Source: Lophium mytilinum | Lineage: Eukaryota | DNA: 64,000 nt | Reading direction: 5' to 3' | Assembly: GCA_010093605.1 (NCBI GenBank) | Contig: MU004183.1 | Coordinates: forward strand, 1,612,001-1,676,000 | In this document: in pieces, positions 28,847-51,114 of the stretch | How the letters are laid out: every line of letters starts with the position of its first letter | How positions within the stretch are numbered: position 1 is the stretch's first letter | Made by a program: the position numbers and the translations under genes | Notes under the pieces: generated by a model | Seen by the model: only the letters and a program-made list of their open reading frames with translations | Told to the model about the DNA's origin: nothing | The model's database searches: none

Positions 28847-31800
28847 ATGAACCAAGAGAGCTCCAACTTGTCAATCATAAACCCGAACCCCTCTCATCTG
28901 GATGGACCCAAGCTTCTACACCAGCTTCTCGATGGCAGTCGCGGGCTGCAACATTTCGCGATTGACTTTCTTGACAATGGCACGACCAAGAGGCAAATCT
29001 CGTATCAGTCATTGCATACCTTGAGTGATGCGCTAGCAAAAAGGCTTCGTCGCTCTCTTTCCCGTCTGAATCAGGACCGCCCCGTAATACCAGTGCTATT
29101 GCCACAGTCACCAGAGCTTTATATAACGCTATTGGCAATACTCAAGGCTGGCGCAGCATTCTGTCCGTTAGGCTTGGATGCCCCCGAAGAGCGACTACGC
29201 TTCATTCTTGAAGACGTTTCAGCACGTATTGTGGTAACGACGCCTGACCTGGAGAACCATCTGCCTCGTGGCCCTCAATTGGAAGTTCTGATCGTGGAGC
29301 ACGAAATATATCAGAGCCATGGGGACGAAACACTCTCCAACGACACAATCCGTCCAACCGATTTGGCCTACTTGATGTACACATCAGGCTCAACCGGAAC
29401 ACCAAAAGCCGTGGCAGTATCACATTTCGCAGTGACCCAAAGCCTTCTGGCTCATGACAAACACATTCCGCGCTTTTCTCGGTTCCTACAATTCGCAGCC
29501 CCTACGTTCGATGTATCTGTCTTCGAGATATTCTTTCCTCTCTTCAGGAGAGGCACTCTCGTTGGCTGTACTCGAGCCGACATGCTCAACGACTTACCTA
29601 GGGTCATCAAAGATATGAATGTGGATGCAGCTGAGCTCACACCTACTGTCGTTTCTAGCCTGCTCCGAGGCCGACAGAGTGTTCCAAGTCTGAATCTTCT
29701 TCTCACCATAGGAGAAATGTTGACCCGCCCAATTGTGGACGAGTATGGCGGTACCAAAGCTCGAACGAGCATTCTCTGGGGAATGTACGGTCCGACCGAA
29801 GCTGCAATTCACTGCACGCTTCAGACAGCATTCTCGTCTAGCTCTAGTGTGGGGAATATTGGAGTACCCCTAGAGACGGTGTCTGTTCTCATAGCAACTC
29901 CGCTCGATGAGTCTTCAGCCGTGTCCTCGGACGTGCATTTGGTTCCGCTCGGCAAAGCAGGGGAATTGATTGTCGGTGGGCCCCAGCTAGCCATGGAATA
30001 TCTCAACCGGCCCGATATCACTACTTCAGCCTTCATAGACCATCCGCAATATGGCCGCTTGTACCGCACTGGAGATAAGGCAAAAATTATGCCGGACGGT
30101 GCCATCGAATGCTTAGGACGACTTGTTTCTGGGCAAGTGAAATTGCGAGGGCAACGATTGGAGCTTGGTGAGGTCGAGCAGGTTATTGCTGGATTGGAGG
30201 GCTTTCGAAACGTTGCCGCTCAGATCATCGACGAAACTCTCGTAGCCTTTTGCCTGGTCGACTCTTCAAGTGTTTCGTCGCAGGACGTGCTTCAAGTCTG
30301 CAATCGTTGGTTACCATCATTCATGGTCCCTGGAGATGTCGTCTTACTTTCCACTTTCCCACAGCTTCCTTCTGGAAAGGTCGATAAGCGGAAGCTCGAG
30401 GCGGACTACTGTCTCAGAGATGCCGGTCTAGCGTCTAGAGATCATAGCGGTATAATGGCCGACCAATGCGAAGACACGGTATCAAGTGTTGTACAGGACG
30501 TACTTCACCAGAGATTGGATTCTTTGACTCCTTTCGCTACCATTGGCCTGGACTCTTTACGATCGATTCAAATAGCGTCCCGACTGCGAAGAGCTGGATA
30601 CGATGTCGATGCTACAGATGTCCTCTCCGCATCAGATATCAAGGCTCTAGAAACACGTGCTACGGAGAAACGACGATTTGAGCAATCAACACCATTCAGT
30701 CATTGCAGTAACATGTTTAAAGACATAAAAGATCTCGCATTGGAAAACTTAGAGCTGCAGTCACATCGAGCATTGATTGCCGATATCATCCCGTGTACGC
30801 CTCTACAAGACGCCATGCTTGCCGAGACCATCCTTCACTCGGACGCTTATTGCAACTGGATTGAAGTTGAGATGTTAGAAATGCATACCTTTGCGGAAGT
30901 CAAACAGTTTCTGGTAATTCTTGCGGCAAAGAATGAGATTCTCCGATCTGGTTTCTGCGGTGTCCCCCTCTCCGCAGCCCCATACGCACAAGTCATCTGG
31001 AGGAGCTTGGACGATGCCCAAATTGAAGAATCTGAACACTTTACTCGACATTTTGCTCTTGATAGTTCCGGCTCACTTCTGCGACCACTAAAGGTGCAAG
31101 TGAATACGAAGGGGAAGAAACCGCGACTTCTATTCCAGATTCCACACTATCTGTATGATGGCTGGTCATTTGACTTGATCTTGAAAGACTTGAGTGATCT
31201 CTCTTTGCGCAGAGGGAGTCATAGTCGGCCTCAATTCCGAGAAGTGGTTCAGTACTATTCGTCACTTCACGACTCTCAACAAAACAACGAATCTAGAAAA
31301 TATTGGAGGGATCAGCTAGCTGGATACCAACCCACGCCTTTCCCGAATCTCAATAGCAAGAGCATCACAGCTGGTTCACCACAGTCTTTCTCTCGCAGGT
31401 CAATTGTAGACCTAAAACTACTCAAAGACGAAGCAGATGAGCTGCAGATGAATCCCCAAGTGTTCTTCCAGGCTGGGTTGGCCTTCATCCTCAGCTCTTA
31501 TCTAGCCTCCACTGATGTGGTCTTTGGTACAGTGACATCTGGTCGAACTCTTGCCATTACCGGCATTGAGGACATTCTTGGGCCTTGTATTGCGACTCTC
31601 CCGCTGCGGATATCTTTATCAGATTACGCCACCGCAAGAGATGTCTTGGAGAGCATTCATCAGTCGAATAGAGCAGCAATCAACCATTGCACCACACCAC
31701 TCAGGGATATCAAAAGATCTTGTGGAATCAACCCAGGAATCTCACTATTCGACGTTCTCTTCGTATGGCAGGAGTCCTTAGAAAGTCATAATCTCGAGAA

Positions 31801-34800
31801 TTTAGCAGTCAAAACTATTGATAGTCTTGACAGGCTAGAGTTCAAGCTCACACTAGAGATAACTCCGACTACAAACGGCGTTCTCTACCGTGCAAATTAC
31901 GATCCTTGTGTCGTACCTGAATCCCAAGTTCGGATTTTGCTTTCACAGCTCGACGATCTGGTCATTCATCTAAGTCAGCACCGACAGGCAAATCCACTTC
32001 GGCTTGACAGCATCCTTCGCAACTCAAACCTCTCTATCGCAAACCCACGGCCTATTCGACAGAAAATTGATTACGGACCAGCTCACTCGGTGGAAACATG
32101 GGCTAAGCATGCGCCGGATAGGCCTGCCGTGTCATTTGGCTCGAGGAGCTCTGGTCCCTCGATGACGCTACAGACTGTCTCATACATGGATCTGAATTCA
32201 CGGGCCAACAAGCTTGCGAGACTACTTCAAGCTAGCGGATTTGGGAACGAAGAACTCATCTGCATCTATATGGAGAAGTCCATTGACCTGTACGTCTCCG
32301 TTCTTGCCGTATCGAAGCTCGGCCTCGGATATGCTCCCATCACTCCAGACACACCCGTAGAACGGACCCTGTGGATACTCCGTGAAGCGGGAGTCAAAGC
32401 ATGCATCAGTCACTCATCATGCTCCGGACGTATCGAAGCGAAAGATCACCATACTGTCCTAAACGTGGATACTCTTAACTTTTCCGCTCACTCCGACCAG
32501 AACATAGACATACCATACAAGGGTGGCAACCTAGCATATGCAATCTTCACCTCCGGTAGCACCGGGACGCCCAAAGGCGTTCTAGTTACCCAAGACAACC
32601 TTGCTAGCAATCTCAAAGTGCTGTCCCAGATCTATCCGGTACACGATGGCTCGAGACTCTTACAATCATGCTCGCAAGCATTTGACGTGTCTGTTTTTGA
32701 AATATTCTTCACGTGGTACACCGGCATGTGTCTGTGCTCCGCCACGAAAGATGATCTATTCCACGACTTTGAAGGCTCCATTAGACAGTTCAGGATTACG
32801 CATTTGAGCCTTACTCCCACTGTTGCCGCTCTTGTTGATCCTGAAAACGTACCCGAGGTGGTGTTCCTTGTAACTGCTGGAGAAGCAGTCACTGAGCAAG
32901 TGAGGAGGAAGTGGGCTGGCAAAGGCCTATATCAAGGTAAGTTTAATTCTCAACTTTCTTCCTTCGAAGCCATTCTAACTTTCATGTGTCAAAGGATACG
33001 GGCCATCTGAAACTACCAATATTTGTACGGTCAATCCGAATGTCGACTCGCATGACGTGATATCTAACATCGGTCCTCCTTTCTGCAACACTTCAGCCTT
33101 TGTTCTGGATGCTACCGGAGATGCGCTAGTCCCGCGAGGAGGTGTAGGCGAATTATGTTTCGGCGGCGATCAAGTTTTTCGTGGCTATCTCAACCTGCCA
33201 GAAGTAACGGCTGCCAAAATATTCGAGCATCCTGAATATGGCCGACTGTATCGGAGTGGAGACCTTGGTCGGCTGTTACCTAGCGACGTGATACTGTTTG
33301 TTGGAAGGTCTGACGACCAGGTTAAGATCAGGGGCCAACGGGTCGAGCTTGGAGAGATAAGCTCAAGCATACTGGATTCGGAGTCCATTCACGATACAGT
33401 GAGTATCGTGTTCGAGAACGAATATCGAGTACAGACCCTTGTCGCGTTCTGGGTACCTACAGGACTGGCATCTCAAGATTTCTCTACGCTTCCAGATCCC
33501 TCTGATGAACAATTTGCTTCGGTCATCTCTGGTACTTTCGAACGATTGGAATCTAGACTACCGTCGTACATGATTCCAGCGCACTTGATACCAGTTACGA
33601 GAATTCCAATGACCCAGCAATCGAAAGTCGATAAACGCAGACTTGTTGCGGCGTTTCAAAGTCTGGATTCACAGTATCTGGATCAAGTCGGGCAACACGC
33701 TTCCACGACAACCGCCAGCGGAGAGTGGTCTAGCCTCGAGCGTCAGCTAGTAAACTTGCTTAGTTCGGTGGCTAAGGTAGGTGTCTCTCGAATAGGACGT
33801 AATACATCGTTCTTCAGTCTCGGATTGGACTCCATCTCCGCAATTTCACTTTCTCGCCAGATTGGAGAGGCTAGGCTCGCAAACGTATCGGTTTCTCGTA
33901 TTCTTCAAAATCCAAGCATATCACGCCTAGCTAGTAGCATTTCTGCGGACGGAGCCGAAAGCAAGACCAGTCAACGAATTGCAACTCGAAAATTGCATAC
34001 CATATTCGACGAGGAGTTCAAGTCTGATATTTGCACTGAGTTCCAAAAACACGGAGAGCACGTCGAGAGAATCCTACCGTGTACGCCTCTGCAGCAAGCA
34101 ATGCTATCAACCCTCGATTCGTCAGATCCATCTACATATTTCAATAGGATGGTGTTTGAAATTACTGGTGAAGAGGCTGTCTTGCGCAACTGCTGGCAGA
34201 CTATGACTGAAAGACACGAAATTCTACGAACGTGCTTTGTAGCGACCGAAGAACCGGAATATGCTTATGCCCAAATCGTTCTCTCGCCCAAAGAGCTCCC
34301 ATGGGATGTTGTCGATGTGCAATCCGAGAATTTGCAGCAACGCATAGAGCAATACATAGCGGATATTTCTCCTTCCCTAGTATCGCGATACAGGCCTCCT
34401 ATACGCTGGGCTTTTATCAAATCTGGGTCGGCCCGTCATTTACTATTCTACTGTCACCATGCCATGTATGATGGAGCGGCAGTATCATACCTCTTAAATG
34501 AGATCGAACAGCTCTATCGCGGCTCGAAATTACCGGCACCGGTATCATACGAACCCTACCTAGAGGAGCTAGTCTCGCTTGATGACAAGACTGCAGAACT
34601 CTTCTGGTCTGATAGATTGCGGAATTACGAACCCTCGGCGTTCCCTAACCTCACTGTGAAACCAACGTCATCGATGGACGTATCGAGCCGTGGAGGAAGC
34701 GTCTCGAGAGATCTGACAGTCAATCTCGACGCTGTCCATGAAGAATGTCAGCGAATGTCGCTCTCTCTCCTCTCAATAATGCAATCAGTGTGGACAAAGC

Positions 34801-37800
34801 TTCTGCATTATTACCTTGGAGAGACCGATATCTGTTTTGGCAATGTTGTCAGTGGGCGCACGCTTCTAGTGCCTGGGTTGGAACGGCTCGTAGCACCGTG
34901 TTTCAATACGATACCCGTCCGGGTTGACCTGACGTCTTTAAAATCAAATGAAGAGCTAGCACAGACTCTCCAAGACTTCAACGTAGGCTCTCTGCCGTTT
35001 CAACTGACCGCCCTTCGAAAAATCCAGTCAAAGGCTTGCCACGATGGCGGCAGACTCTTCGATAGTCTTTTCATATTGCAGCCTACACGACAAAACCTCG
35101 ACCATAACTTGTGGACTCTGGAAGAAGATGTCAGTCAGATGGACATACCCTTAGTCTGTGAAGTCACACCTACTCCGGACCGAAATACCATCGAATTGAC
35201 AGTTCACTATCATCAAGAAATCGCTGGAAAGCCTGAGGCTGAGGCGATTGCCGAAGTATTCGACCACGTTTTGCGCTCATGCGTGACCTCTCCTTCGGGT
35301 TCACCCATTCAGACCAGTGGAATTCCTCCGCGATTACTTTCCGTCTGCAATGAGGATTACATAACCCTACAGCCTTCCAATGGACCTTTGCTCATTTCAG
35401 CTTTTCAACAAAATGCTGTGCTCCAACCCCATAAAGTTGCGCTAGATTTCCTGCACGGAAGTGGTGAGAGAACAAAATGGTCGTTCAGAAGGCTTGATGA
35501 AATCTCCAACCGGATTTCGCATGCGCTGTTGTTTCGAGGAGTCCAAGTTGAAGACGTCATTCCTATACATCTACCCAAGAGTCCGGAATTCTATGCTGGC
35601 ATTCTTGGCATCCTGAAAGCAGGAGCGGCCTTTGCACCTTTTGATCCAAAGCTACCAGAGGAGCGTAAAAGATTCATGTTTTCAGAACTAGGTTCATCAG
35701 TCGTATTGGGCACAGAAGACACGGCCTCCAGCTGGTGTAAAGGAGCACAAGTCGTAGATGCGACAGAGGTGTTTCGATTCAGTAACCGTACTCCTCGGGT
35801 ACCGGGTATCAAATCGTCCAGTCTAGCTTACTGTCTTTACACATCTGGGTCTACTGGCCTACCTAAGGCAGTAGCTGTCGAGCATCGCAATCCCACTCAG
35901 ACCATTGAGAGCTCTAGGCGACTCATCCCTTGGAACTCGCATTCAAGACTTCTCCAATATGCAGCCACGACCTTCGATATGTGCTATTACGATTGTTTCC
36001 TGGCATGGTCGTTTGGGTTCTGTCTCTGCGCCGCAGACCAGTCTGCTATGCTGAATGATCTTTCGAAGGTCATCAACACGATGAACATCTCGCTACTAGA
36101 CCTCACTCCAACCGTTGCTGCGACTATTTCAAGGAGTCACGTACCTTCCATCGACTTCTTGTATTGCATTGGTGAGGCAATGCTACCTAGTATCATCAAT
36201 CAGTGGGATAGCCAGTGTGTCAATTCATACGGTCCAACGGAAGCAGCGTTTTGCTGCACCATCTTTCCCACTACGCAGGGAATCAAGCCCAATATCATCG
36301 GAAGACCATTTACAACAACATCTTTCACGGTTATCTCTAAGGATGGCGAAACCGTAGTGCCCGTACTGGGCGTTGGAGAACTTCACATCGGCGGTTCCCA
36401 AGTTGCCCGAGGATACTTCGCGAACGAAGAACTCACATCATCAAGATTCATTGAATTCGATGGACAGCGTCTTTATAAGACTGGTGACATGGTTCGAATG
36501 CTGGCGGACGGCAACTTTGAATTCCTTGGGCGATCCGATGATCAAATCAAGATAAGAGGGCTTCGCGTCGAGCTTAGTGAGATCAGTCAGGTCATCAAGA
36601 ACTCACACGAGGATATACAAGCTGTCAATACGCAAATACTACGCAAGTCAAAGGATGCCAAAGATCAACTGGTTGTGTTCATGGTCACAAAGAGACCAAA
36701 GGACCATTCAGATAGCGCCGTCAAACAAGCTGCACGTTCCGCAGCGACTGCAAAACTGCCGGCTTACATGGTCCCAAACTTCTTGATACCAGTTTCCGAT
36801 ATTCCACTATCTTCAGCTGGGAAAGTTGACAAGAGAGCGCTTACAGATATTTTCCGATGTGATGCGGATGCGGATTCGGAACTATTGGGCGACGAAGTGG
36901 ACAACGAAGCTGACTGGACTTCATTACAGAAGGAGGTCAGAAGCGTATTATCCTTCCTTTCTCGCACTCCCGAAAGCACCATTAGACTTCGCACGACAAT
37001 ATATCAACTCGGACTGGACAGTATCAGTGCCGTACAAGTTGCAGCGAGATTAAGAAAGAAAGAATTCCAAGTATCTGCTAGCGACGTTCTCGAGAATCCA
37101 ACTTGTGTCGACCTGGCAAGCAAACTCGAAAGATCGGCTGGAGCTCCAAGGTTGGACCTCGAACCTAATGGATTCTTTGACACTCTGGAACAGACTCTTC
37201 GACCTCTTGTCTGTAATTCATATGGTCTACGATCGGAGACCATTGAATCAGTTCGCCCTTGCACCCCTCTCCAGCAAGGCATGATTTCCAAGCTCATTCA
37301 GTCGGGCGGTACTAGGTATTTTAACTACCTACAGCTCCAACTTGATAAAGGGTTGGATATCTCTCGGCTTCATTCCGCCTGGTCCGCAACAATGCAGAAG
37401 CATGTCATGCTACGCACAGGATTTGCTACCATTAACCTTAAGCGTCACCCTTTCGCCATGGTCCATTACCTCGGAGCTGAAGTGAGTATTCCATGGGATG
37501 CAAATGAGCACTATTCGGATGATTTACATGAGATTGACCAATGGCTACATCAATCCTCAATTCAAGTGCTGGAAAATCTCCACAAGCTTCCGTGGCGTTT
37601 GAGAATTGCATCTAGCAGCGATCGGGTTACCATGGACTTAGCCATGTTCCATGCTCTGTACGATGCCCACAGCCTCAATCTCATTCTTGGAGATGTTTCT
37701 GCCGCTTATCGTGGTCTTTCCACTGCTCCGGCAAGCTCTCTGGATACAGTACTAGGATCTATTGTTCGCGATAGGGATGAAAAAACCTCTCTATTCTGGG

Positions 37801-40800
37801 AGAAAAGAACTAAAGAAGTGAATCCGTCGCGTTTCCCGAATCTTTCTCCCCTCAGGGTAGAAACTGCCCCGTCTCAAGTCCTGTCGAAGATCAGCTCTAG
37901 AAGTATGAGCGACCTTGAGAGAGGTTGTCGTGCTAGAGGCATCACTATGCAAGCCGCTGGACAAGCTGCCTGGGCTTTGGTTTTGGCCGCATACACAGGC
38001 GACCCCAAAGTTACATTTGGTACTGTTCTCTCAGGTCGTACATTCGAAGACTCCGAGACCGTTGCTTTCCCAACTATCACAACCGTGCCAGTGACCTATC
38101 GCACCGACCAAGACAACGATGCACTTCTGAAGGACATAATGGAGCTCAGTTCTTCGGTCCAGAAGCACCAGTTCACCCCTCTAAGCGAGATACAGCGCAT
38201 TGCCGGGTTTCCTGACCAGCCACTATTCGATACCATCTTCGCCTTTCAGAAGGTTTCTACTCAGGACACTACATCTCGGCCCTGGAGAATCAGTCTGGAA
38301 AAGGCCTCTGATGATGTAAGTACAATTCTAGAATCTTCAGTTGCAGTTCTAACGAAATAGTACTCGTTATCTATCGAGGTCGAGCCTGCCGCCACGACAC
38401 TCGAACTGCGCATCACGTTCTCTCCTCACGTGGTCCCGGTAGAGCAAGCCTCTCTGATTCTGAGGCAGCTAGACGCGTTCCTCGTCAATCTAATTATGCC
38501 TCCAAGTATGGTGTCCCTGCAAACCGCCCCGCATGATGCAGTATTGTTTTCTATTACACCTGCAAGGGAGCCTTGTATTCCATCGAAGATCAAACTGCTT
38601 CATGAATTCGTTGAGGTCAATGCGAGGAAGCAGCCTCAGAAGATAGCCTTGGAATTCGTTCAGGCCTTCCAATCCGGAGAAGCTGTGGGCCAGTGTTGGA
38701 CTTATGCGGAACTCGACACGGAGGGAGACAAGATTGCCAGCTTACTCCAGAGTTATGGCGTAAAGCCCGGCGGCATGATCGCTACATGTTTCGATAAATG
38801 TCCCGAAGCGTCCTTTGCAATGCTTGGTGTCCTCAAAGCAGGATGCGCATTCGTGGCACTCGATCCGAGCGCGCCTACAGCACGAAAAGAGTTCATACTC
38901 AAGGACTCTGGAGCAGACTTATTGCTTACCATGAGTTCCCAATCAGCGGATCTTGAAAGTCAAGTCACTGTCCCCGTTGTGAACCTCGACGATCAGAACA
39001 CCAGACGTACGTTGAAATCAAGGCTCAAACTGGAACGTCCGATCACTGGTCAAGATACCAGCTACTGCCTATACACGTCGGGTACAACTGGTACACCAAA
39101 AGGCTGCGAGATAACGCACGAAAACGCTGTTCAAGCTATGCTCGCATTCCAGCGCCTTTTCGCAGGTCACTGGGACTCAGCGTCCCGCTGGCTCCAATTT
39201 GCATCTTTCCACTTCGATGTCTCAGTATTGGAGCAGTACTGGAGCTGGTCTGTTGGTATCCGCGTCGTCTCTGCACCACGTGATCTCATCTTCGAAGACA
39301 TTGGTGCTGCCATCAAAGTTCTCAATATCACACACATCGACCTCACTCCGAGCCTTGCTAGCATTCTCCATCCTGACGATGTTCCAAGCCTCTGCAAAGG
39401 GGTCTTCATCACCGGCGGAGAACAGCTAAAACAAGAAATACTCGACGTTTGGGGCCCTAAAGGTGTCATATACAACGGATATGGACCGACAGAAGCCACT
39501 ATCGGTGTTACCATGTATCCTAGGGTCCCCGAAAACGGAAAAACTTCCAATATTGGCCCTCAATTCGACAATGTTGGGTCGTATGTCCTCAAACCCAATA
39601 CTGAAATTCCCGTTCTTCGTGGAGCCATTGGGGAGTTGTGTGTGTCTGGAAAATTGGTGGGCAAAGGATATCTAAATCGAGATGATCTCACCAAAGAGCG
39701 CTTCCCGTGGCTCAAAACATTCGAAGAACGCGTTTATCGGACTGGAGATCTAGTCCGTATTCTGCACGACAACTCGTTCTCTTTCTGCGGCCGAGCTGAT
39801 GATCAAGTGAAGCTACGCGGGCAGAGACTGGAAATTGGAGAGATCAATTCGGTCATCAAGCAGGCTTCAGAAACAATAGTAGATGTAGCAACCTTGGTTT
39901 TGAAACGTCCGAACCAGCAGAAAGAACAGCTAGTTACCTTCGTGGCCACGAAAACTTTGTCCAAGTCGCGAAAAGAGCCGGCAATCCTTATTGGCAGCTG
40001 TGCGGAGTTGGTGCCGGCCAAAGAGGCTTGCGTGGAGAAGCTACCTGGATATATGGTCCCCACTCACTTCGTTCCAATCACCTCGATCCCATTATCAGCG
40101 ACCAATAAAGCGGACGGGAAGAAGCTTCGTGAGCTTTATAATGCCCTTGCTACGGAAGACCTTCAGCATCTCTCGAGCTTATCACGGGATCAAGACGACA
40201 AGTGGTCAACCACTGAGCGTCGCATTAGAGATGTTGTGAAGGACTTCACCAACAGTGATCCAGACGCGATACGTAAATCATCAAGCATCTTTGAGCTTGG
40301 CCTTGACTCGATCTCAGTAATCGGCTTCGCTAAGAAGCTAAAGGAAGTTGGGTTCACAAACGCACAAGCATCTTTAGTGATGAAAAGTAAGTATGTCCAA
40401 GTCCATGGCCGTAACATCCGCTGACCAGAATACTAGATGCATCCATCAGTCGCCTTGCAAAAGCCGTGACAAGTAGGGATGATGCTGGTCTGAGTGAACG
40501 CGCTGCAACCATCGAAGCCCGTCAGAAAACTGCAGCGATCCAACACCGACAACGTGGAACCATCCTCGATGCACTTCAGATCAACTCAAGCGATATCGAA
40601 TGCATTTCTCCATGTACGCCACTACAAGAAGGCATGATCGCGAGGTCGCTCGAAAGTGAGCAGCCATTATACTTTGTGTGTTTCCAGCTTCACTTGTCCA
40701 GCGCGGTTGACGAAACAAAACTGCGCTCCGCTTTTGAAAAAGTCTTTGCATCGACACAAATCTTACGCACCTGCTTCGTCAATACCGAGGATGGATTCTT

Positions 40801-43800
40801 GCAGGTGGCTCTCCGAAAACCAGCCTTTCCCTGGAAACAGATCGCAATCCCCAATTCCAGTGAAGTTGACCATCATCTTACTTGTGAGAAGGAGATGTGG
40901 TGGAAAGAGAACAAAGTGAGTCTCCAAAGGCCATTCGAATTAGTGTTGGTAAAGTTACCTGGTCGGGCAGTCCTCGCTCTGCACATCTTCCACGCGCTCT
41001 ACGATGGGGGCAGCTTGCCCATGCTTCTAGCCGCCCTCCTGAAAGAGTATTCAAATCTCGGAAGCGCTTCTTACGGGCCACCGTTTCAATCTGTTCTTCC
41101 CTTTGGGCCCCTTAGGAAATCTGAAGGTGCACAAAGCTTCTGGTCCAAGATTCTCTCAGCAGCTCAACACAGGCCATTCCCGTCCCTAGCTGCATCGTCA
41201 CAGATAGAAGATGTTGTAGTTACTAGAAACCTAGAGGGGCTTGACCGCTTCGAGGCCATCAGGCGGAAGCTTCAAGTTACTCACCAAGCAATTGCGCAAG
41301 CTTGTTGGGCAACGGTGATGCAAGCTCATGTCAAAGGTGCGGTCACGCTGGGCATAGTTGTTTCTGGAAGATCAATCGACTATGAGGGGGCAGAAAACAC
41401 GATCGGTCCATTATTCAACACTATCCCGTTCTACATTCAAGTCGAAAGGCCAGACACATGGGCGACTTTAGTCACGAGGTGTCATGACTTCAACACCGCG
41501 GCTGTACCATTTCAGCATACTCCATTGAGAGACGTTATGAAATGGAACAAAAGAACGTCGAAAGAGCCGCTCTTTGATACGCTATTCGTGTATCAGCGAG
41601 CTGATGGGGATAGTAGTACTTGGGCTCATAACCACCTTTGGGATGTGGTTGATGACGGTTCTACTGCTGACTATCCGCTTGCATTTGAAGTGGAGCAGAG
41701 TCAAGACGGGGCTTTGAAGCTTACAATAGTTGCCCAAGGGCATGTCCTCGACTATTCGAGTGCCTCCAGGTTGCTCGATGAGTTCGAAGCTACTTTGAAC
41801 TCGCTACTCACGAATGCGGAGTCCTTGATAGCAGATGCCCGCGGCGACATCTTCGATTCTTCCGATGCTGCTCTTCACCCATTCCAAGCTGATAGGCTTC
41901 CGGGGATACCTTCAGATCCAGATACAGCTTATGAGTGGGGACTACAAGCGTCCGCAATTCGAGACGAGATAGCAACACTGGCTGGCGTCGACACGGTCGA
42001 AATCAACGAGAGAACTTCGATTTTCGAGCTGGGTCTTGATAGTATTGATGCCATCAAGCTATCTTCTAGGCTGAGAAGACGTCAAATCGAGATTCCAGTC
42101 AGCTCGATCATGCGAAATCTGACTGTGTCGAGAATTGCACAACATATCCTAAGCGAACCGAGCAATAAGGCACCGTTGCATTCGGATGGAATGCAGCTTC
42201 AACTGCGAACATTGGAAGAAATCTTCCGGAAGAGCAGCCCCGGCAAACAAGCGGTCGATCATGTGCTTCCAGTAACTCCATTGCAAGAAGGTATGGTAGC
42301 GGAAATGCTGTCTTCCGACTTTACTAGGTATTTTAATCACGACACTCTCAAACTGGGCAGCAATGTCGACATCACGAAACTCAGAGACGCTTGGGACACC
42401 GTCTTTCAACAATCTCCAATTCTTCGAACCTCGTTGATGGAGATAGATGACCCAACTTTGGACTTCTCTTTTGCTCAGATCGCCTCACGATCTCCCGCGT
42501 TGCCTTGGGATGAGACTGAACTTGGGAACGAAAACCAAATAACGCAGCTCATCAATGACATCAGGAAAACAGCTGCGCGCTCGAAGTCTCCTACGAATCT
42601 TTTTCGGATCCATTTCGTGAAGTGCCCAGGGGCCTCTTACCTCGTGTTATCTCTCGCGCACGCATTATACGATGGATGGTCGCTCACCCTCTTGCATGAA
42701 GACGTTCGAAGGGCGTACTATGGCCAATACAAATCTCGACCCTCATATCGCAAGGTTCTAGAACAAACTTTGAACGCGTCGGGTCCAGAGGCGAATGGTT
42801 TTTGGCAAAGCTACCTCTCCGGCGCTGAATCGGTAACGTTCCCTCGAAAGGGGCCCTCGGAAAGTCAACCAGACCAGCAGCACCGACTAGAACGCACGAG
42901 CAAGATTCCACTTTCTCAGTTGATCTCCTTCAGCAAGAAATATGGGATCACTCTCCAGACAATCGGACAAGCCGTCTGGTCGTTAGTCCTTGCCTCATAC
43001 CTACACACACTCGAAGTCGTTTTCGGCTCCATCTTATCCGGAAGGGATAGTGAGCTAACGACGGATGTGCTGTTCCCAACGATGAATACCGTCGCCGTTC
43101 GTGTGTTTCTCCACGGAACTCGACTTGAGCTGCTTCGGGATGTGCAACACAACTTTGCGAGTATTCGACAATACCAACATTTTCCGTTACGTATCGCTCA
43201 AAGATTCGCTGCTTCGCCAGGGAAAGCTCTTTTGGACACTCTCTTTGTTTACCAAAAGAGCCCTGAAGCCACCCTAGACACACAGAAGCCGCTGTATGAG
43301 TCCATTGGTGGGTTGTCTGATGTCGAATATCCGGTGTGTACCGAGATGGAGATCGTGGGGAATGATCTGATTTGGCGCTGCGCTACGCACAACTCAGCTC
43401 TTGACGATGAAGGTGCTGCGGAGTTGCTAGACCGGCTCGATCTGGTATTGAGGAATGTTATGGAACATCCTAACCAGCCAGTTATCGACATTACGAGTAA
43501 CGAGACTAGCATCTGCGGGTTAGCACCGTACAAAACCCAAGACACATCGGCCCTCATGCCTGATCATGCCGAAGACGAAGAACCATCAAACACCACGTCT
43601 TCCGCATGGTCTGCTACCGAGTTGACTATTCGCGAAGTGCTCTCAGCCGTGTCGAATATACCCGAAGACGAGGTGTCGAAATCCATAACCATGTTCCATC
43701 TCGGTCTCGATTCAATCAGTGCCATTAAAGTGTCTTCTCTTCTTCGGAAACGATCGGTCAATCTGAGTGTAGGCGACATGCTTCGGGCAGCCACAGTGGA

Positions 43801-45304
43801 GAAAATGGCAAAGTTAGCCGATCAAAGGAAGCCAGATGCACCATTTTCCACCTCCGACACGGATGCTTTAATCTCTGCGGCCCTAGAACATCAAAACGTA
43901 CCTGCAGTACTCTCTCGAGCTGGCCTCTCCACCGATAGCTTCGAAAATATCCTTCCTGCTTCGGCTGGCCAGGTTTACATGCTTTGTAACTGGACGAACA
44001 CCCGCGGCACGCTGTTTTATCCGGGCTTTCAATATCGCGCCTTGGAATCTCTTACCGTAGCAATTCTGCATCGAGCATGGGACGAATTGGTCGCTCGAAA
44101 TCCACTGCTCCGGACCTCCTTCTTCGCCACACGAGATGTAGAGACTCCATTTCTACAGGGCGTCCTCCGAAACGCAACTTCTTCATTCCACGACATCTCC
44201 GACATTGAAGAAGCCAAAAGATCTCGCTACATTGAAGAGAACAGCACTTGCCAACCTTACGTTTTCCTCTTCGCTCAGCGGTCTGCGAATCACTGGCTTC
44301 TAACTCTCAAAATCCACCATGCTCTGTACGACGGCGTGAGCCTACCGATATTGATACACCAGCTTCAAGACCTCTGCAATGGCTCTGTAGCGCAGGCCCA
44401 CCAGAATTATGCATTCAAACGAGCACTGGCTATCAACTCTACCGAGGACGCTCGCAAAAAACGTCGATCCTTTTGGACTTCGTATCTGGAAGGCGCCTCA
44501 CTTAGACATCTCGCGCAACCTAGTAACGCGGCCTCGTCTCGGGTAGAAGTCTTCAAGCCCCGCCTGATCGAGAATGTCGGAAGCTTAGAGAGCCTGTCCA
44601 GGCAAGGTGGACTCAGCATCCAATCGCTTTTCTTGGCGGCATATGGCAAGATGTATTCCGCGCTGCTCCCTGGTACTCTGGACCCCAAGGACGAAGACCT
44701 TGTAATCGGGCTGTATCTCGCGAATCGCTCTCATGCAATTGAAGGCCTCCCCGATGGCGCCGCGCCGACAGTGAATTTGGTCCCTCTGCGGATCAAGACG
44801 CCGCAATTAACAAGCCTTTCAGACTCTGCCTTGCAGATACAGCATGATATACGGGAGATTGGCACCTTAGAGAACTCGGCGGTGGGGCTGTGGGAGATCT
44901 CGAAGTGGACTGGAGTTAGGATTGATACCTTTGTGAATTTTCTAAAGCTGCCTGCCGCGGACACCGAAGCTGCCAAACAACCTCTGGAAATTCAAGAAGC
45001 CAATGGAGGGGAGGAAGCGTGGAGTAGAACGGTGGACCACGCGGAGAAGGTGGAAGGCTTCGTTCTTGCGAAGGAGCTTCTAGACAACGTGGTCAGGGAA
45101 TCGTATTTGGTGAGTCTTGGATCTGCGCGAGAATACATCCATATGCTAACATTAGATTTCTAGCACACAATTGACGTGGAAGCCACTATCAGAAATGGCG
45201 CTTTGGATGTGGGCGTGTTTTGTCCGGTAGAGCTGTTGGGTATGGAGGGCGCAGGGAAAGTGATTGAAGATCTAAAGAGAGAGCTCATGAGTTTGCTTTC
45301 GTAG
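28847..45304 (+). CDS. NPS2: Ferrichrome-family (probably ferricrocin) siderophore NRPS, A-T-C x4 + T-C x2, ~5,416 aa, 5 exons
   Basis: Exons 28847-32936, 32995-38315, 38361-40386, 40437-45109 and 45164-45304 sum to 16,251 nt in frame. Four A domains (Y/FTSG(S/T)TG, YGP(T/S)E, Y(R/K)(T/S)GD, VK(L/I)RG), six GLDS thiolation motifs and six H(A/Y)(L/M)YD(G/A) condensation motifs. Divergent from sidA. Confidence 0.95.
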
Positions 45305-45572: not shown

Positions 45573-46724
45573 CTAAGCCTTCAATCGCGTCCCTTGTAAA
45601 TCCTCGTGCGCGTCCTTGAGTAGAAAGCTAAAGCATGTCAGACTTTTGCCATGTACTCTGAAGAAGTATTTACTTACTTGTACCACCATATCGTAGGGCC
45701 AACAGTCCCTAGATGCCACAGACTATGCGCATCGACCATGCCCCACCAAGGTGGAAAGTCCAACAACTCCAAACTCATCGCCATAATTATCCACGCGACG
45801 ATCAGACCCGGCCACATCGCCCAAGTCCTATTCAACTTCTTGTACTGATTGTAACTGAACCAACTCCACATCAAGTTCTGCACGATTCCCACGGCCACAT
45901 TCGCCGCCATATTGTACGTGTAGTCCCAGCTCCAGAGCGAGAGATATAAGACATGCGCGGAGTAAAGCGAGAGACACAGCAGCGTCCACGCCCTCAACAC
46001 GCTCTGTTTAACGGGGTCACGCTTATCCAGGCGGAAGATGCGGATAGGCGCGTAGTACAGCCCATACATAACGCTAGCGCCCGCACCGAAGTAGTCCATC
46101 TTCTCCGTGAACGCAAAATCGCGTGTGTGGAAAAGCATGCTGAAGGTCCAGCTCGCCAGCCCGAAGTATCCGAACAGCAGGTAGTATTTACGCAGGGCGT
46201 AGGAGGCGGGCACTTCGCTCCGGAGCCGCGAAATGCCGTAATCGTGGGCGAGGTAGTTGAAGAGGGAGAAGATGACGCTGAAGGGTTCCTGCATGCCTAG
46301 GAAGCGGTAGAAGGGCCATTTACCGTGGAATTGGTAGATCGGCTGCATGTAGGGTGGGTCGCGCGCGAGCCGTGTGTCGGTCACGACGTGCTGGCATGTG
46401 TAGTCGCATTCGGACGGGCAGTCCCAGAGGAGGAGCCGGTGGTGGAGAGCTAGGAGGTTGTCGTATCAGCGCCAAATCGATCACTATGATACAGCAGCTG
46501 GAAACTCACATATAGGCGTCGGGTTATCTCCGCAGTTGGCTTCTTTGCAGACCTGTAGAACCAAGGTGAGCGCGTGCTATGCTTGGTGGATGTTGATGTC
46601 TCACCTTCACACATTCTTTGAATTCCGGCAGCCTGTCACCGAGAGAGGCTTGAGAGAGGCCAACAAATGAACACGCGGCGGTGAGAGCAATTAAATGCCA
46701 TCTTTGGTGCGATCGTAGCCTCAT
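45573..46724 (-). CDS. PER1: Per1-like GPI-anchor lipid remodelling protein, 4 exons
   Basis: Signal peptide followed by 'ASLGDRLPEFKECV', 'WDCPSECDYTCQH', 'QFHGKWPFYRFLGMQEPFS', 'FHTRD' and 'DFPPWWGMVDAHSLWH'. Confidence 0.95.
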
Positions 46725-47310
46725 CTTCGTGGCTAGAGTATCTCCATGAAGCTGGGGGATGGTGTGTTGTTTCAGGGCCCTGAGTCTCTCCCGCTTCCGC
46801 TCCGCAATTTCTTGGCACTCCCCAAAATGGGCACCTCAGATATAAGTTTCCGGTCGCAAGGGGTTTGTTGGTACTCAACTTTGCTGATTTTGTTTGACGG
46901 CCTGTAGTTGTTTTTTCGATCGTTCATGTTGAGATTTCGTCGGTTGCGAATAGTTCTGGCCTTGTCTTGTACCACCCAGCGGTCACTGATAGAAAGTTTT
47001 CATTCGCGAGCCTCAAAGAGCTCGGCTTCTGTGATCTTAGTGCTCCTTGAGATGGTCCTCAATAAGAAATTGCTGTGACTTGACCCTGGATTCCCCGTAA
47101 TGCCTGATGTACTACGGTGATGGCTCGTGCCCCGCTGAATTGCACTAATAATCAAAAAGAATATTACCAAACCGCCCCAAACGCAAAGCTGATGTTCTGG
47201 TATGATCTCTTAACGTAGAAATGCCAAATATACGCAAAAAAATTGGTGTTCCTCTCGCAAACCGAGCCGCGGTGGTTCACTGACGCTGGAGACCCTCCCA
47301 ACCCACCACC

Positions 47311-47316
47311 AAAAAA
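47311..47316 (-). terminator. RNA polymerase III oligo-T terminator of tRNA-Ala
   Basis: TTTTTT on the minus strand, 12 nt after the discriminator base. Confidence 0.75.
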
Positions 47317-47328
47317 TCAATCCTACTC

Positions 47329-47460
47329 TGGAGATATGGGGGATCGAACCCCAGACCTCCCGCAAGCTATATGCAAAGCGGGCGCTCTACCACTGAGCCT
47401 TGGCGCTTACGTCAGCTATTATATATGAAGATAGGCCACGGAGCCACTTACTATATCCCC
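47329..47460 (-). tRNA. tRNA-Ala(UGC) interrupted by a 53-nt spliceosomal-type intron (nt 9/10) and a 7-nt canonical intron (37/38)
   Basis: Spliced sequence GGGGATA-TA-GCTC-AGTGGTA-GAGC-G-CCCGC-TTTGCAT-GCGGG-AGGTC-TGGGG-TTCGATC-CCCCA-TATCTCC-A. All four stems pair, with G3:U70 and A73. B box GGTTCGATCC, T6 terminator downstream. Confidence 0.88.
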
Positions 47461-48284
47461 GAATTTCGATGGTTGCAAAAATTATTCAATATATATACCG
47501 TAAAAAAAGAACAGATCAAAACTCTGGGGTGGCGGTGAAAGCTCTCCTACACGTCATTGGCTATAGATCATTGAAACCGCCGCAGAAATTGCTTACAGGT
47601 ATAGTATAGGTTCCATGGGACCCACTCTCCAATGCGGGGTCTACAACGCCTTTTACAGCTTCCAACCCCACAAGGTAGGATACATAATCCGAAAAATCTA
47701 GTGCATTCTCTTTGAATGTACGCACATAACTCTACTCCATTAGAGCAGAATTGCTAAATGCTGTGGCATATGAAAATTCATGTTGGTTGCGGTTCGGACT
47801 ACTAAGCGAATGTCCCCCAACACCTCCCCGCTCCATCCCACGCCTCCGAACCGCCAGTTTCCCTCACCATAAGCACCCGATCATAAGGCAATAGGCCTTT
47901 CAAAAAGGCCGCGCTATTATGATTTCTGCTCGAATAGGACAAATCAATCACTGATTCGCTCACATTGTCCTTATCAACTCGCCCGCCCCCTTTTGCAATT
48001 AACTAGGATGTGCCGCCCAGCTGCAACATTTTTATATTCATCGTCTTCACCGGATACGAAGCTGACGGCCTCTACTCATCTAACAACCATGGTGATATTG
48101 GCCTTAGTATGACTTGCCCACGCAGCTACCATAAGCTTCAATTTGAGGGTTCCAAATTGCTTTTTTGCACATATTTTGCTGCCCGCGAAAGCCTCCTAGG
48201 CTTAAAGTGTTCTCAAAGCGGCGATGTCGTTGTGTACACTCTATAGATGAACCATGAGGACTTGACCTAGTTTTGAGCTTTGGA

Positions 48285-49507: not shown

Positions 49508-51114
49508 CTACGCAATCTCGTACTTGCGCCTGAACATGCCGTCAACGTCAGTGAGGTAGTATGTACCAGGGAACAGGGTATCAGTGGCGCCCTTGGGCTT
49601 GTAGTCTTTTTGAAGGTGGGCCTTGCCGCGGAGGTTGCACATCTGTGGGTGGTGTTAGTCATGTGATGCTGGGAACAATAGTAAGAGTTTCAAAGAAAGA
49701 GAGCTTACCTCATCGTACACCTCCGGAGCGACAACACGTCGCGAGTCCAGGCGGCTCTGGATGTCAAGCGCCTTCGAGATTTCCTCTGTAGAGCCATTGA
49801 CCTTGAATGAAAACAAGGAGCTGGCAAGACCGCTGCCGTAGCTGAACATGCCAATGCGCTTGCCCTGGATGTCCTCGCTGCTGACATTGCTGATCAGGCT
49901 GCACAAGCTGCCGTACACGCTACCGCAGTACATGTTGCCGCACTGAGTGGGGACCTGGATGCTGGGCTGGACGCGGGCGGCGTACTTCTTCTTTGCGAGA
50001 CCCATAAAGACCTTCTCGACGGCCTTGTCAGTCACAGAGGCTGCGTAATCGAGACCAGACAGCTCCTTGGGAACCTCGGCGAAGATGGGGTCGGAGGGGT
50101 TGGTGAGATAGTCGTTGTACAACAGACGCGCGTAAGACTTATTCACCAGCTTGCAGTTTGGCGCATGGAAGCACATGTAGTCGAAACGATCGAGAGGAGT
50201 ACCGGCTGCGGAGTCACCGTTCGCATGACCGTTGGCTTGGCCCTTGACAACTGCTTCGCGGGCGTTGTACGCCTTGTAGCATGCGTCAACAGCCTCGATG
50301 TAGCAGCGGATGGAGAATTGCCCATCAACAATGGGGTACTCGCTCGTGAAGTCGGGCTTGTAGAAGTCGTAGACGTGGGTAATGTAGCTGCCACGGATGC
50401 CAGCATCCACTACAATGGGGGCGTCTGGGCCAACGAGCATAGCCACACAGCCAGCACCGCCAGTCGGGCGAGCATTGCCCTTCTTATACAGCGCAATGTC
50501 GCCAGTAACGACAATTGCGTTCCGGCCGTCCCAAGCAGACGACTCGAGCCAGTTCACAGTGTTGAAGAGGGCGTTGGTGCCGCCGTAGCAGGCATTCACG
50601 GTGTCCACACCCTCGACGTTGAAGTTTCCAGATTCCTCGAAAAGCTGCATCAACACCGACTTGACGGATTTTGACTTGTCGAGCAGGGTCTCGGTGCCGA
50701 CCTCGAGGCGGCCAATGGTCTTCAGGTCGATATTGTACTTCTTTATGAGAGAAGAGAGCGCGGTGAGGGCTAGCGAGTAGATGTCTGTGCAGAAGAGGCC
50801 CGTTAGCACGCATTCTCCCCACTGCGGCCCTGGCTCGCAGCGAACACTGGGTAGGAGCTCTCACCTTCCCGGTCGTCGCAGAAGCTCATCTTCGTCTGGC
50901 CCAGGCCAATGGTGTACTTTCCGGTGCTAACGCCATCGAACTTCTCGAGCTCGGCTTGGTCGACGCACTGCAACCGCGGTTAGAGTCGTCGTTGCCAGAG
51001 GGGCGCAGCACTCGTGCTCGTGCGTCTAGGAGGGGCAGGGGACGGCACACGTACCTGGCTGGGAAAGTAGAGCTCGAGGGCCTTGATGCCGATGTTGGAG
51101 GGTCGCGCGGCCAT
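49508..51114 (-). CDS. ERG13: Hydroxymethylglutaryl-CoA synthase, 4 exons
   Basis: [20 protein letters not shown], '[19 protein letters not shown]', catalytic 'NACYGGT', '[10 protein letters not shown]' and '[10 protein letters not shown]'. Confidence 0.96.

Follow-up and report, generated by a model that had tools for sequence, protein, structure and literature searches.

Spliceosomal introns in genes for non-coding RNAs have been described for U6 of Schizosaccharomyces pombe and other fungi and for U1, U2 and U5 of Rhodotorula (PMC5855946, in part). According to the same excerpts, many of the snRNA introns represent lineage-specific insertions, their splicing is mostly predicted rather than shown, and U6 is a Pol III gene. 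The excerpts list snRNA genes (U6, U1, U2, U5) and rRNA genes as hosts of spliceosomal introns, and tRNA genes are not part of this list. In a view published in 2025, the intron classes of eukaryotes are unrelated, with spliceosomal introns occurring only in Pol II transcripts and tRNA introns being a matter of TSEN (PMC12530127, in part). The first-pass annotation of the locus considered here was not aware of spliceosomal introns in tRNAs, in agreement with the available parts of PMC5855946 and PMC12530127, which describe none; moreover, no report of spliceosomal introns in tRNA genes was found in the literature searched, which comprised main texts of freely accessible papers. Interruptions of tRNA genes outside position 37/38 are represented by introns of nucleomorphs, of Cyanidioschyzon merolae and of archaea, which are cut by an endonuclease at BHB-like motifs, are 3-74 nt in length and are devoid of GT..AG or branch signals (PMC4090602 and PMC3978253, both in part). 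The default view of an insertion in the D arm of one of several synonymous eukaryotic tRNA genes is that it marks a pseudogene (PMC4090602, in part).

The 64-kb stretch of Lophium mytilinum DNA that was analysed (the window) contains a tRNA-Ala(UGC) gene on the minus strand, in which nt 1-9 (GGGGATATA) and nt 10-73 (beginning with GCTCAGTGGTAGAGC) are separated by 53 nt (Table 1), the minus strand reading exactly as quoted in the first-pass annotation. The anticodon TGC corresponds to 47375..47373 and A73 to 47329, and an anticodon-loop intron of 7 nt is located at 47371..47365 by 37/38 numbering (written as 47370..47364 by ARAGORN). This short intron occupies the 37/38 position of TSEN tRNA introns, and the 53-nt insert is located at position 9/10. 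When the insert was removed in silico, ARAGORN reported a tRNA-Ala(tgc) of 72 nt in which all stems are paired and the 7-nt anticodon-loop intron is present, and the cloverleaf structure of this spliced form contains both G3:U70 and A73, which are identity elements of alanine tRNAs. The earlier claim that exact GT-AG removal restores tRNA-Ala(UGC) was thereby corroborated. The 7/4/5/5-bp stems, the D and T loops and the UGC anticodon of a cytosolic tRNA-Ala(UGC) were obtained only with the insert removed in silico. The 72 nt contain zero disabling changes, and every pair of the acceptor helix is formed between the two sides of the insert.

Table 1. Features of the interrupted tRNA-Ala(UGC) gene and its surroundings, with positions given in the window.
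Feature	Coordinates	Strand	Basis or remark
tRNA-Ala(UGC) nt 1-9, GGGGATATA (5' acceptor strand, U8 and A9)	47452..47460	-	ARAGORN cloverleaf after in-silico removal of the insert
tRNA-Ala(UGC) nt 10-73	47329..47398	-	Rfam tRNA model, ARAGORN
Spliceosomal-type insert, 53 nt	47399..47451	-	splice signals, size, shuffle test
TATA-like run TATATATATT	47488..47497	-	at -37 to -28 from tRNA nt 1
T6 run, Pol III terminator-like, 13 nt past the tRNA 3' end	47311..47316	-	sequence
Intron of 50 nt, GTAAGC...GTGTAG	47547..47596	-	removed in X3 contig; 86 nt upstream of the tRNA
Upstream exon of host transcript, at least this extent	47597..47759	-	X3 record 2; no ORF with Pfam match
Internal exon, 95 nt; last 9 nt are tRNA nt 1-9	47546..47452	-	predicted middle exon of the host transcript
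Contig-covered stretch: tRNA nt 10-73 and 184 nt of trailer	47145..47398	.	X3 record 1, 254 nt, 0 differences
PER1 (Per1-like family)	45674..46724	-	Pfam PF04080, E 8e-104; in-frame model
PER1 introns	46604..46553 (52 nt); 46509..46450 (60 nt)	-	in-frame model

The prediction that standard tRNA finders would miss the gene was borne out. ARAGORN detected 0 tRNAs in the intact window and returned only a spurious Ser(aga) call for the unspliced tRNA sequence, and the output of Infernal was a low-scoring, apparently 5'-damaged match, in which the Rfam tRNA model extends over 47407..47329 at 37.4 bits, bases of the insert are forced into the acceptor stem and four of the seven acceptor pairs are flagged as non-standard. 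No other tRNA-like match was present in the window at E values up to 1. The split arrangement of the tRNA is more than chance. When the 200 nt upstream of G10 were shuffled 200,000 times, a 9-mer that completes the acceptor stem and supplies U8/R9 occurred in 1,677 shuffles, and the same 9-mer with GT directly after it and AG before G10 occurred in five, with neither GTAAGT nor a branch site being required; GTAAGT has four occurrences on the minus strand of the whole window. A random insertion or an assembly mis-join that resembles an intron is very improbable in view of the rarity of this minimal version, to which GTAAGT and the branch site come in addition, and of two runs of the source sample (X1 and X2), in which 100% of the sampled words across the stretch are present. 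Such an error would be compatible with the fact that a single assembly is known and that X1 and X2, with their complete set of sampled words, may themselves represent the source.

The insert begins with GTAAGT (47451..47446) and ends with AAG (47401..47399), and a branch-like GCTGAC (47416..47411) places the branch A at 47412, 13 nt from the end of the insert. These elements correspond to the signals of U2-type introns, i.e. GTRNGT, a CTRAC-type branch 10-30 nt from the 3' end and a terminal AG. The length of 53 nt compares with 50, 50, 52, 58 and 60 nt for local introns, which comprise the two PER1 introns, two NRPS introns of 58 nt (GTAAGT..AAG) and 50 nt (GTAAGT..TAG) and the RNA-supported 50-nt intron, in line with the earlier statement that the insert has the size of mRNA introns in this region. 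The remark that AAG serves as an acceptor elsewhere in the window was confirmed for the NRPS intron at 32937..32994, the removal of which joins the YGPSE motif of the adenylation domain in frame. Judged by its nucleotide sequence, the insert carries every hallmark of the U2-type introns of this genome, and it is placed exactly between nt 9 and nt 10 of a tRNA. The 3' AAG is a weak acceptor, and another AG is found just 6 nt past the branch A.

The insert resembles the fungal snRNA introns in combining canonical GT, branch and AG signals with the size of an mRNA intron in the gene for a small, highly structured non-coding RNA (PMC5855946, in part). Unlike the snRNAs, the tRNA host is no component of the spliceosome, and the rationale of reverse splicing next to the active site is inapplicable to it; furthermore, tRNA-Ala(UGC) has a second, TSEN-type intron, and the RNA-like data suggest a Pol II host. 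Spliceosomal introns are also said to occur in nuclear rRNA genes of lichen-forming fungi, as reportedly described by Bhattacharya et al. in 2000 (cited in PMC5855946). The common feature is that an ascomycete gene for a structural RNA outside the realm of Pol II carries a spliceosomal-type intron, whereas the lichen-fungal rRNA genes are transcribed by Pol I and have many introns per gene and tRNA-Ala(UGC) has one such intron in a tRNA of 72 nt.

With respect to the origin of the insert, no second copy was found within the 64-kb window, the best other match being 10 nt, and the window likewise yielded no introner-type repeat. A derivation from tRNA duplication was rejected, since the local alignment score of 14 was reached in 408 of 2,000 shuffles. 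No terminal inverted repeat was seen in the insert on inspection by eye, and the fold of the insert is weak (-8.1 kcal/mol). A BHB motif at the junctions was likewise rejected, as the exon ends ..GATATA and GCTCAG.. do not pair and form no exon-exon outer helix, and the sole 4-bp helix near both junctions (TGGC/GCCA) leaves gaps of 5 nt and 2 nt and not two 3-nt bulges. These results bear on the explanation that the tRNA splicing endonuclease excises the insert as a non-canonical tRNA intron, a situation known from nucleomorphs and Cyanidioschyzon. Some tRNAs of algae and nucleomorphs carry such introns in their D arms (PMC4090602, in part), and the locus shares with nucleomorph and C. merolae tRNAs, as far as the excerpts extend, the interruption outside 37/38, the additional presence of a canonical intron and the failure of standard tRNA finders to detect the gene. 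It differs from the nucleomorph, C. merolae and archaeal introns in that the BHB test failed and the signals are spliceosomal. With exon ends that cannot pair, a short helix with the wrong gaps and splice signals of the mRNA-intron type, the endonuclease route is scarcely credible.

Contigs covering the surroundings of the tRNA were obtained from run X3, which originates from one study and is probably RNA according to the guess of the run-search tool, none of the runs with matching sequence being recorded as RNA; such contigs do not show the strand or the absence of a junction. One X3 contig joins 47597 to 47546 with 0 differences (joint listed as 47545/47596; skip 50, depth 13, side 88), and the ends of the 50-nt skip read GT..AG on the minus strand; in principle, this joint could be a deletion allele. 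The spliced contig passes a T7 tract (47508..47502) and extends 3 nt into the tRNA, its end being at 47458, and X3 record 1 runs through the T6 run and through another T7 tract (47242..47236). Pol III stops at such T tracts, and since the X3 contigs cross them, they look like Pol II products. Provided that X3 is RNA, as is probable, a spliced transcript reaches the tRNA, and RNA-like cover extends across Pol III stop tracts. The tRNA is probably located inside a spliced minus-strand Pol II transcript; that both X3 contigs stem from a single molecule is not proven. A coding host gene was rejected, as the longest ORF of the spliced host transcript does not exceed 76 aa and its small ORFs have no Pfam match. 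The host is apparently a short, spliced, non-coding transcript upstream of PER1.

The stretch 47399..47457 has no contig cover, and no joint across the insert was seen, which is evidence neither way. Of the ends of the X3 contigs, one (47398) coincides exactly with the predicted 3' splice site, and another is located at 47458. These ends may reflect a fork between spliced and unspliced forms, a paralogue fork, RNA ends or roadblock termination and do not amount even to a weak hint; they may also reflect a repeat at 47487..47369, as both are situated 30 nt (k-1) inside it.

The Pol III signals named in the first-pass annotation were found in place, comprising the upstream TATA-like run, the B box (47350..47340, intact) and the T6 run, and the insert is indeed free of T4 runs. 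In some fungi and plants, TATA elements upstream of tRNA genes are of importance for transcription (PMC3978253, in part). The A box (47400..47390) reads AGGCTCAGTGG, with its first two bases belonging to the insert, by which it is moved to a distance of about 60 nt from the upstream TATA/start region. TFIIIC would place TFIIIB nearer the A box, i.e. inside the insert. A route similar to that of U6 would require that Pol III transcribes from the upstream TATA through the insert to the T6 run and that the spliceosome acts on the Pol III transcript. The intact TATA, B box and T6 run and the T4-free insert are consistent with this route, as are the TATA-dependent tRNA transcription of some fungi and the TFIIIC-independent transcription reported in vitro (PMC3978253, in part), and U6 of S. 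pombe, which is transcribed by Pol III, contains a spliceosomal intron (PMC5855946, in part). A short RNA of the Pol III type was not seen in the available data. Because RNA-like contigs cross the T tracts and the insert separates the A box from the start site, a Pol II host is the likelier route, and we consider a U6-like Pol III transcript improbable.

The preferred reading is that of a genuine spliceosomal-type intron that is removed from a Pol II host transcript and leaves a pre-tRNA that can be finished by RNase P, RNase Z and TSEN, a reading to which we assign about an even chance. An old tRNA-Ala(UGC) would have gained a 53-nt U2-type GT-AG intron at nt 9/10 and would have kept its 7-nt anticodon-loop intron. 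The spliceosome would remove the insert and the 50-nt intron located 95 nt upstream from the Pol II transcript, the ligated exons would hold the complete pre-tRNA, and RNase P, RNase Z, TSEN/ligase and the CCA-adding enzyme would process it, such that at least some mature tRNA-Ala would be made via two unrelated splicing systems. We infer removal of the insert, release, charging and use of the tRNA, and any selective value. The first-pass annotation had proposed a functional tRNA in need of the spliceosome; the intron hallmarks, the perfect tRNA and the lack of a BHB motif speak for this proposal, whereas its assumption of a Pol III pre-tRNA had to be revised, as the RNA-like X3 contigs point to a spliced minus-strand transcript of the Pol II type. 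Formation of tRNA-like RNAs from Pol II transcripts is known for mascRNA (MALAT1), trypanosome tRNA-Sec and engineered tRNA-guide RNA arrays, and the proposed cleavage of a longer Pol II transcript by RNase P and RNase Z, with release of an RNA of tRNA shape, is of the same kind. To our knowledge, none of these three needs spliceosomal exon ligation to form the tRNA fold. The Rfam mascRNA model gave only a sub-threshold match of 13.5 bits.

The evolutionary state of the insert was deduced from related loci. PER1 has the same orientation as the tRNA and follows it downstream at a distance of 604 nt, and a metagenome scan with a 28-nt exon-2 word yielded 29 loci with 31 matches, representing 23 distinct genes. 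An insert-like interruption is present in 0 of the 31 matches, all 5' ends being uninterrupted. At eight of the 29 metagenomic fungal loci, an uninterrupted tRNA-Ala(UGC) is situated beside a PER1 orthologue with 74-85% identity (five of these are 74-80% identical over 250 aa, and three are partial with 81-85%); the two genes are arranged in tandem as in the window in four cases and head-to-head in the other four. The suggested check of the loci next to PER1 in relatives accordingly revealed a tRNA-Ala(UGC) that is conserved and uninterrupted. Since the PER1-linked orthologues lack the interruption, the tRNA gene is old or ancestral and the insert is derived; it represents a lineage-specific gain relative to the syntenic orthologues. 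Apart from the 7-nt intron, which they lack, three intact genes (L010, L024 and L027) have the same sequence from nt 10 to the end of the T stem. At four pairs of the acceptor helix both strands deviate from the syntenic orthologues, yet the helix is fully paired. Anticodon-loop introns occur in 18 of the 31 related genes, and introns of 7 nt in 4 of the 31 matches; the 7-nt TSEN intron is regarded as normal since related genes often have introns in the anticodon loop. In a comparison of the flanks with the syntenic loci, only the tRNA aligns. A structured pattern for an Ala tRNA with a GT..AG insert at 9/10 gave 0 matches in genome and viral contig collections with almost no fungal DNA.

As the insert is found in 0 of 31 related tRNA-Ala(UGC) genes, the interruption is a rare and possibly young event. 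Young events are often neutral. tRNA families are usually multi-copy, for which reason the tRNA-Ala(UGC) locus may be dispensable. If the insertion is recent, the intact tRNA body proves little. The main rival explanation, which we take seriously although we hold it to be somewhat unlikely, assumes a real intron of a Pol II non-coding or PER1 upstream transcript that was gained by chance in an overlapped tRNA gene and yields no meaningful tRNA; the Pol III gene would be disabled, other tRNA-Ala(UGC) copies would supply the cell, and the intact look would be due to a recent event. The missing insert in the related genes and the intact syntenic orthologues, which make the insert derived and possibly young, conform to this explanation, as does one relative's metagenome contig with two tRNA-Ala(UGC) genes 700 nt apart. 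The locus is also like insertion-inactivated tRNA pseudogenes in that the insertion is near the D arm, probably of one of several synonymous genes, and such insertions are treated as pseudogene marks (PMC4090602, in part). Displacement of the A box from the TATA/start region, the TATATAAT run inside the insert (47425..47418), which could start a 5'-truncated transcript, and the passage of RNA-like contigs through Pol III stop tracts fit a disabled Pol III gene. Unlike tRNA pseudogenes, the locus has full and correctly placed splice signals, and the remainder of the gene is intact, with no disabling change in the 72 nt, an acceptor helix paired across the insert and a retained T6 tract and upstream TATA. 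Splicing of the insert would yield an RNA with a perfect pre-tRNA, and as tRNAs embedded in Pol II transcripts are excised by RNase P and RNase Z, the formation of at least some tRNA would be difficult to prevent.

Within the preferred reading of a spliceosomal intron in a Pol II-hosted tRNA, the more far-reaching claim is that maturation of the tRNA requires the spliceosome for ligation of nt 9 to nt 10 in the Pol II transcript, followed by RNase P, RNase Z and TSEN, and that the product is charged and used in translation. This claim is tentative, and we would put its chances below even. If it is true, a tRNA joins the non-coding hosts of spliceosomal introns, and the locus is a naturally occurring instance of tRNA production from a Pol II transcript. 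In case that no other tRNA-Ala(UGC) with the same acceptor stem exists, decoding of GCA/GCG would partly depend on mRNA-type splicing. Even as a relic, the locus would cleanly illustrate the arrival of an intron in the gene for a structured RNA. The intact syntenic orthologues let the insertion be bracketed on a phylogeny, making a dated intron gain possible, and the gene marks a blind spot of tRNA finders, for which ARAGORN gives nothing and Infernal a low-scoring match resembling 5' damage. In addition to the first-pass annotation, the analysis yielded the derived state of the insert in comparison with uninterrupted PER1-linked orthologues and a probable spliced Pol II-type transcript that reaches the tRNA.

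Two minor observations were made on X4. In metagenome contig X4 (record 4), which is about 97% identical, a T precedes the T6 run and would give T7. A 105-nt X4 contig of another fungus hints at an interruption like that of tRNA-Ala(UGC), but at nt 4/5.

The 53-nt insert that splits the tRNA-Ala(UGC) gene between nt 9 and nt 10 can be read, with roughly even confidence, as a true spliceosomal intron that is removed from a Pol II host transcript, the ligated exons yielding a pre-tRNA that can be finished. The minus strand quoted in the first-pass annotation was confirmed by sequence readout, and the relevant features are compiled in the following table.

Features of the split tRNA gene and of neighbouring genes in the window
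Feature	Position	Strand	Basis
tRNA nt 1-9, GGGGATATA	47460..47452	minus	sequence
53-nt insert, starts GTAAGT, ends AAG	47451..47399	minus	sequence
Branch motif GCTGAC within insert	47416..47411	minus	sequence
tRNA nt 10 to A73, starts GCTCAGTGGTAGAGC	47398..47329	minus	sequence
T6 run	47316..47311	minus	sequence
A box	47400..47390	minus	sequence
Upstream TATA	47497..47488	minus	sequence
NRPS gene, very large, four long ORFs joined by short introns	28793..45163	plus	
NRPS intron, 58 nt, AAG acceptor	32937..32994	plus	
NRPS intron	about 38316..38360	plus	
NRPS intron, 50 nt	40387..40436	plus	
HMG-CoA synthase gene	49655..50860	minus	

The intact 64-kb window yielded no tRNA with ARAGORN, and the sole RNA-family match in it, 37.4 bits to the Rfam tRNA model at 47407..47329, places insert bases into the acceptor stem, with four of the seven acceptor pairs flagged as non-standard; the expectation that standard finders would miss the gene was thus borne out. 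After in-silico deletion of the insert, ARAGORN reported a 72-nt tRNA-Ala(tgc) as a full cloverleaf with all stems paired, G3:U70, A73 and a 7-nt intron in the anticodon loop, in agreement with the earlier claim that exact removal restores the gene, and the unspliced tRNA sequence gave a spurious Ser(aga) call and nothing else. The upstream TATA, the B box and the T6 run are all intact and the insert is free of T4 runs, each as previously described. These features, together with the upstream TATA elements that drive tRNA transcription in some fungi (PMC3978253), favour a U6-like route, with Pol III making the precursor from which the spliceosome then takes out the intron; overall, this route is considered improbable.

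The size and signals of the insert were compared with those of mRNA introns in the window. The reading frame of the Per1-like gene PER1, located just downstream of the tRNA and with a large exon that matches Pfam Per1 (E 8e-104), needs two introns of 52 nt (GTGAGA..ACAG) and 60 nt (GTGAGT..CTAG). At the first break in the NRPS reading frame, just one sensible intron is available; it comprises 58 nt (GTAAGT..AAG) and restores the adenylation-domain YGPSE motif in frame. A further NRPS intron comprises 50 nt (GTAAGT..TAG). These data indicate that the length of 53 nt, the GTAAGT donor and even the uncommon AAG acceptor correspond to local usage, as had been claimed for intron size and for the NRPS acceptor. 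Another AG in the insert is located 6 nt past the branch A, which is too near for use as a 3' splice site, and the AAG at 13 nt therefore remains as acceptor. The minus strand of the 64-kb window contains just four GTAAGT sites. When the 200 nt upstream of G10 were shuffled 200,000 times, a 9-mer completing the acceptor stem together with U8/R9 was found in 1,677 shuffles; only five of the shuffles had such a 9-mer with a GT after it and an AG immediately preceding G10. Beyond these shuffle criteria, the insert contains the full GTAAGT and a CTRAC-type branch site, the A of which is 13 nt away from the insert's 3' end. The arrangement of tRNA parts and insert signals is not accidental, and chance or an artefact is a highly unlikely explanation.

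No second copy of the insert is present in the window, the longest other match being 10 nt, and the insert folds weakly (-8.1 kcal/mol). Derivation of the insert from the tRNA was rejected, the likeness being insignificant (observed score reached in 408 of 2,000 shuffles). A bulge-helix-bulge for the tRNA endonuclease was likewise rejected, as the exon ends are unpaired and the sole 4-bp helix near both junctions leaves gaps of 5 nt and 2 nt; cleavage of the insert by TSEN is most unlikely.

A scan of metagenome contigs with a 28-nt word (tRNA nt 10-37) resulted in 31 matches at 29 fungal loci, representing 23 distinct genes. All 31 are complete tRNAs according to ARAGORN, with uninterrupted 5' ends, and none of these related tRNA-Ala(UGC) matches carries an insert at position 9/10. 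Anticodon-loop introns of 7-34 nt are present in 18 matches, four of them with 7 nt, so that the small anticodon-loop intron of the window is ordinary. The 34-nt intron of L012, L018 and L019 leads to the ARAGORN miscall Leu(taa), with the UGC anticodon context present, and L004/L005 represent one contig with two tRNA-Ala(UGC) genes 700 nt apart, which differ in their anticodon-loop intron (12 versus 7 nt).

A PER1 orthologue adjoins the tRNA in eight of the 29 loci, with identities over 250 aa of 80% (L013, L020), 78% (L009) and 74% (L010, L027) and partial matches at contig ends of 85% (L011), 83% (L028) and 81% (L008). In L009, L010, L013 and L027 both genes share a strand and the tRNA lies 5' of PER1, like in the window (45674..47460), and in L008, L011, L020 and L028 the two are arranged head-to-head. 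The pairing of both genes is therefore old. With an old linkage and uninterrupted orthologues, the sequence comparison indicates that the gene was ancestrally a normal tRNA and that the 53-nt insert is a derived gain in the lineage of the window. The PER1-adjacent orthologues had been suggested as a source of conserved splice signals; all eight loci hold an intact tRNA and lack the insert. The linkage is long-lived and survived inversion, the intergenic DNA is unalignable, and flanks outside the tRNA gave no alignment between the window and the syntenic loci. The window tRNA matches L010, L024 and L027 without any difference between nt 10 and the end of the T stem, and its fully paired acceptor helix differs from the orthologues at four pairs with both strands changed (4:69, 5:68, 6:67, 7:66). 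The acceptor strands (47460..47454 / 47336..47330) are GGGGATA-type in the window versus GGGCGTG-type in L009, L010 and L013; such a change at four consecutive pairs, the rest being identical or nearly so, may stem from gene conversion with a paralogue as donor or else from compensatory substitutions.

The main rival interpretation accepts the intron as real and regards the tRNA as a redundant relic. It is favoured by the uniqueness of the insert among the 31 related genes, by the multi-copy state of tRNA-Ala(UGC) in at least one relative's contig, by the separation of the A box from the upstream TATA through an insert that itself carries TATATAAT, and by the convention in reviews of regarding an insertion in the D arm as the mark of a pseudogene when the gene is one of several synonymous copies (PMC4090602). 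This interpretation deserves serious weight while falling short of probable.

Four sequencing runs share part of the stretch: X1 and X2, with all sampled words present, are probably the source sample, X3 has another organism label and a word share of 0.59, and the corresponding share in the air metagenome X4 is 0.13. Contigs of X3 and X4 were placed on 46300..47800. The first X3 contig (depth 13, no differences) covers 47759..47596 and 47545..47458 with a joint skipping 50 nt, and this gap (47596..47547) has minus-strand GT..AG ends (GTAAGC...GTGTAG). The joint looks like that expected for a spliced minus-strand transcript, and because of this joint X3, a single study whose RNA kind is a guess, was accepted as RNA. 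The second contig (depth 5.74, no differences), of which the strand is not readable, covers 47398..47145; the two contigs need not be one molecule. No contig covers 47399..47457 or bridges it with a joint, a gap that speaks neither for nor against splicing there. A T7 tract (47508..47502) is crossed by the first contig, and the second runs through the T6 behind the tRNA and another T7 (47242..47236). Since Pol III is expected to terminate at tracts of this type, the X3 contigs look like Pol II products. In the host transcript, the internal exon between the 50-nt intron and the insert is 95 nt long (47546..47452) and ends in tRNA nt 1-9, and the spliced sequence contains no ORF of more than 76 aa, the small ORFs being without Pfam match. 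PER1 itself has no X3 cover, and the short spliced transcript upstream of it (47145..47759, minus) may be a non-coding RNA in its own right or a PER1 isoform with a long 5' UTR. The X3 contigs lack loose ends; 47398 is exactly the predicted 3' splice site and 47458 lies 3 nt into tRNA exon 1. Measured from the borders of the segment 47487..47369, both ends are exactly 30 nt (k-1) inward, the pattern that a de Bruijn assembler gives where a segment is common to a second sequence.

According to the preferred interpretation, the spliceosome would remove the insert from the Pol II host transcript along with the neighbouring 50-nt intron, exon ligation would create a complete pre-tRNA within this transcript, and RNase P, RNase Z, TSEN plus ligase and the CCA-adding enzyme would finish it. 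The DNA anatomy, the derived state of the insert and the splicing of the host transcript support in part the functional, spliceosome-dependent tRNA proposed by the first-pass annotation; that the insert is removed and the tRNA is released and used are steps that we infer. The nearest precedents are mRNA-type introns in fungal U6 (Pol III), U1, U2 and U5 genes and in lichen-fungus rRNA genes, which the U6 review lists without mention of tRNA among the hosts (PMC5855946). In nucleomorphs, Cyanidioschyzon and archaea, non-canonical tRNA introns share the odd position but differ in mechanism (PMC4090602, PMC3978253). A 2025 paper still places spliceosomal, tRNA and XBP1 introns in three classes unrelated to one another and assigns the spliceosomal class to Pol II transcripts (PMC12530127). 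Full-text searches of open-access main texts turned up no tRNA gene described as carrying a spliceosomal intron. Spliceosomal introns in non-coding RNA genes are already known, and the new aspects would be tRNA as a host class and a maturation route involving two machineries.

A single 105-nt contig of the air metagenome (X4 record 5, depth 3.2), placed at 47366..47398, represents a tRNA-Ala(UGC)-like gene of another fungus that departs from the window at two of 33 nt, in a longer anticodon-loop intron and in its T arm. Its 25 loose letters past 47398 read TACATCTGGTGGAATTGTTAGTTAA on the plus strand and, on the tRNA strand, present tRNA nt 5-9 after CAG, and 12 nt earlier there is a perfect ACTAAC branch motif. 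With the 5' exon and the acceptor 3' strand outside the contig, the loose letters appear to contain the 3' end of a candidate spliceosomal intron at tRNA position 4/5.
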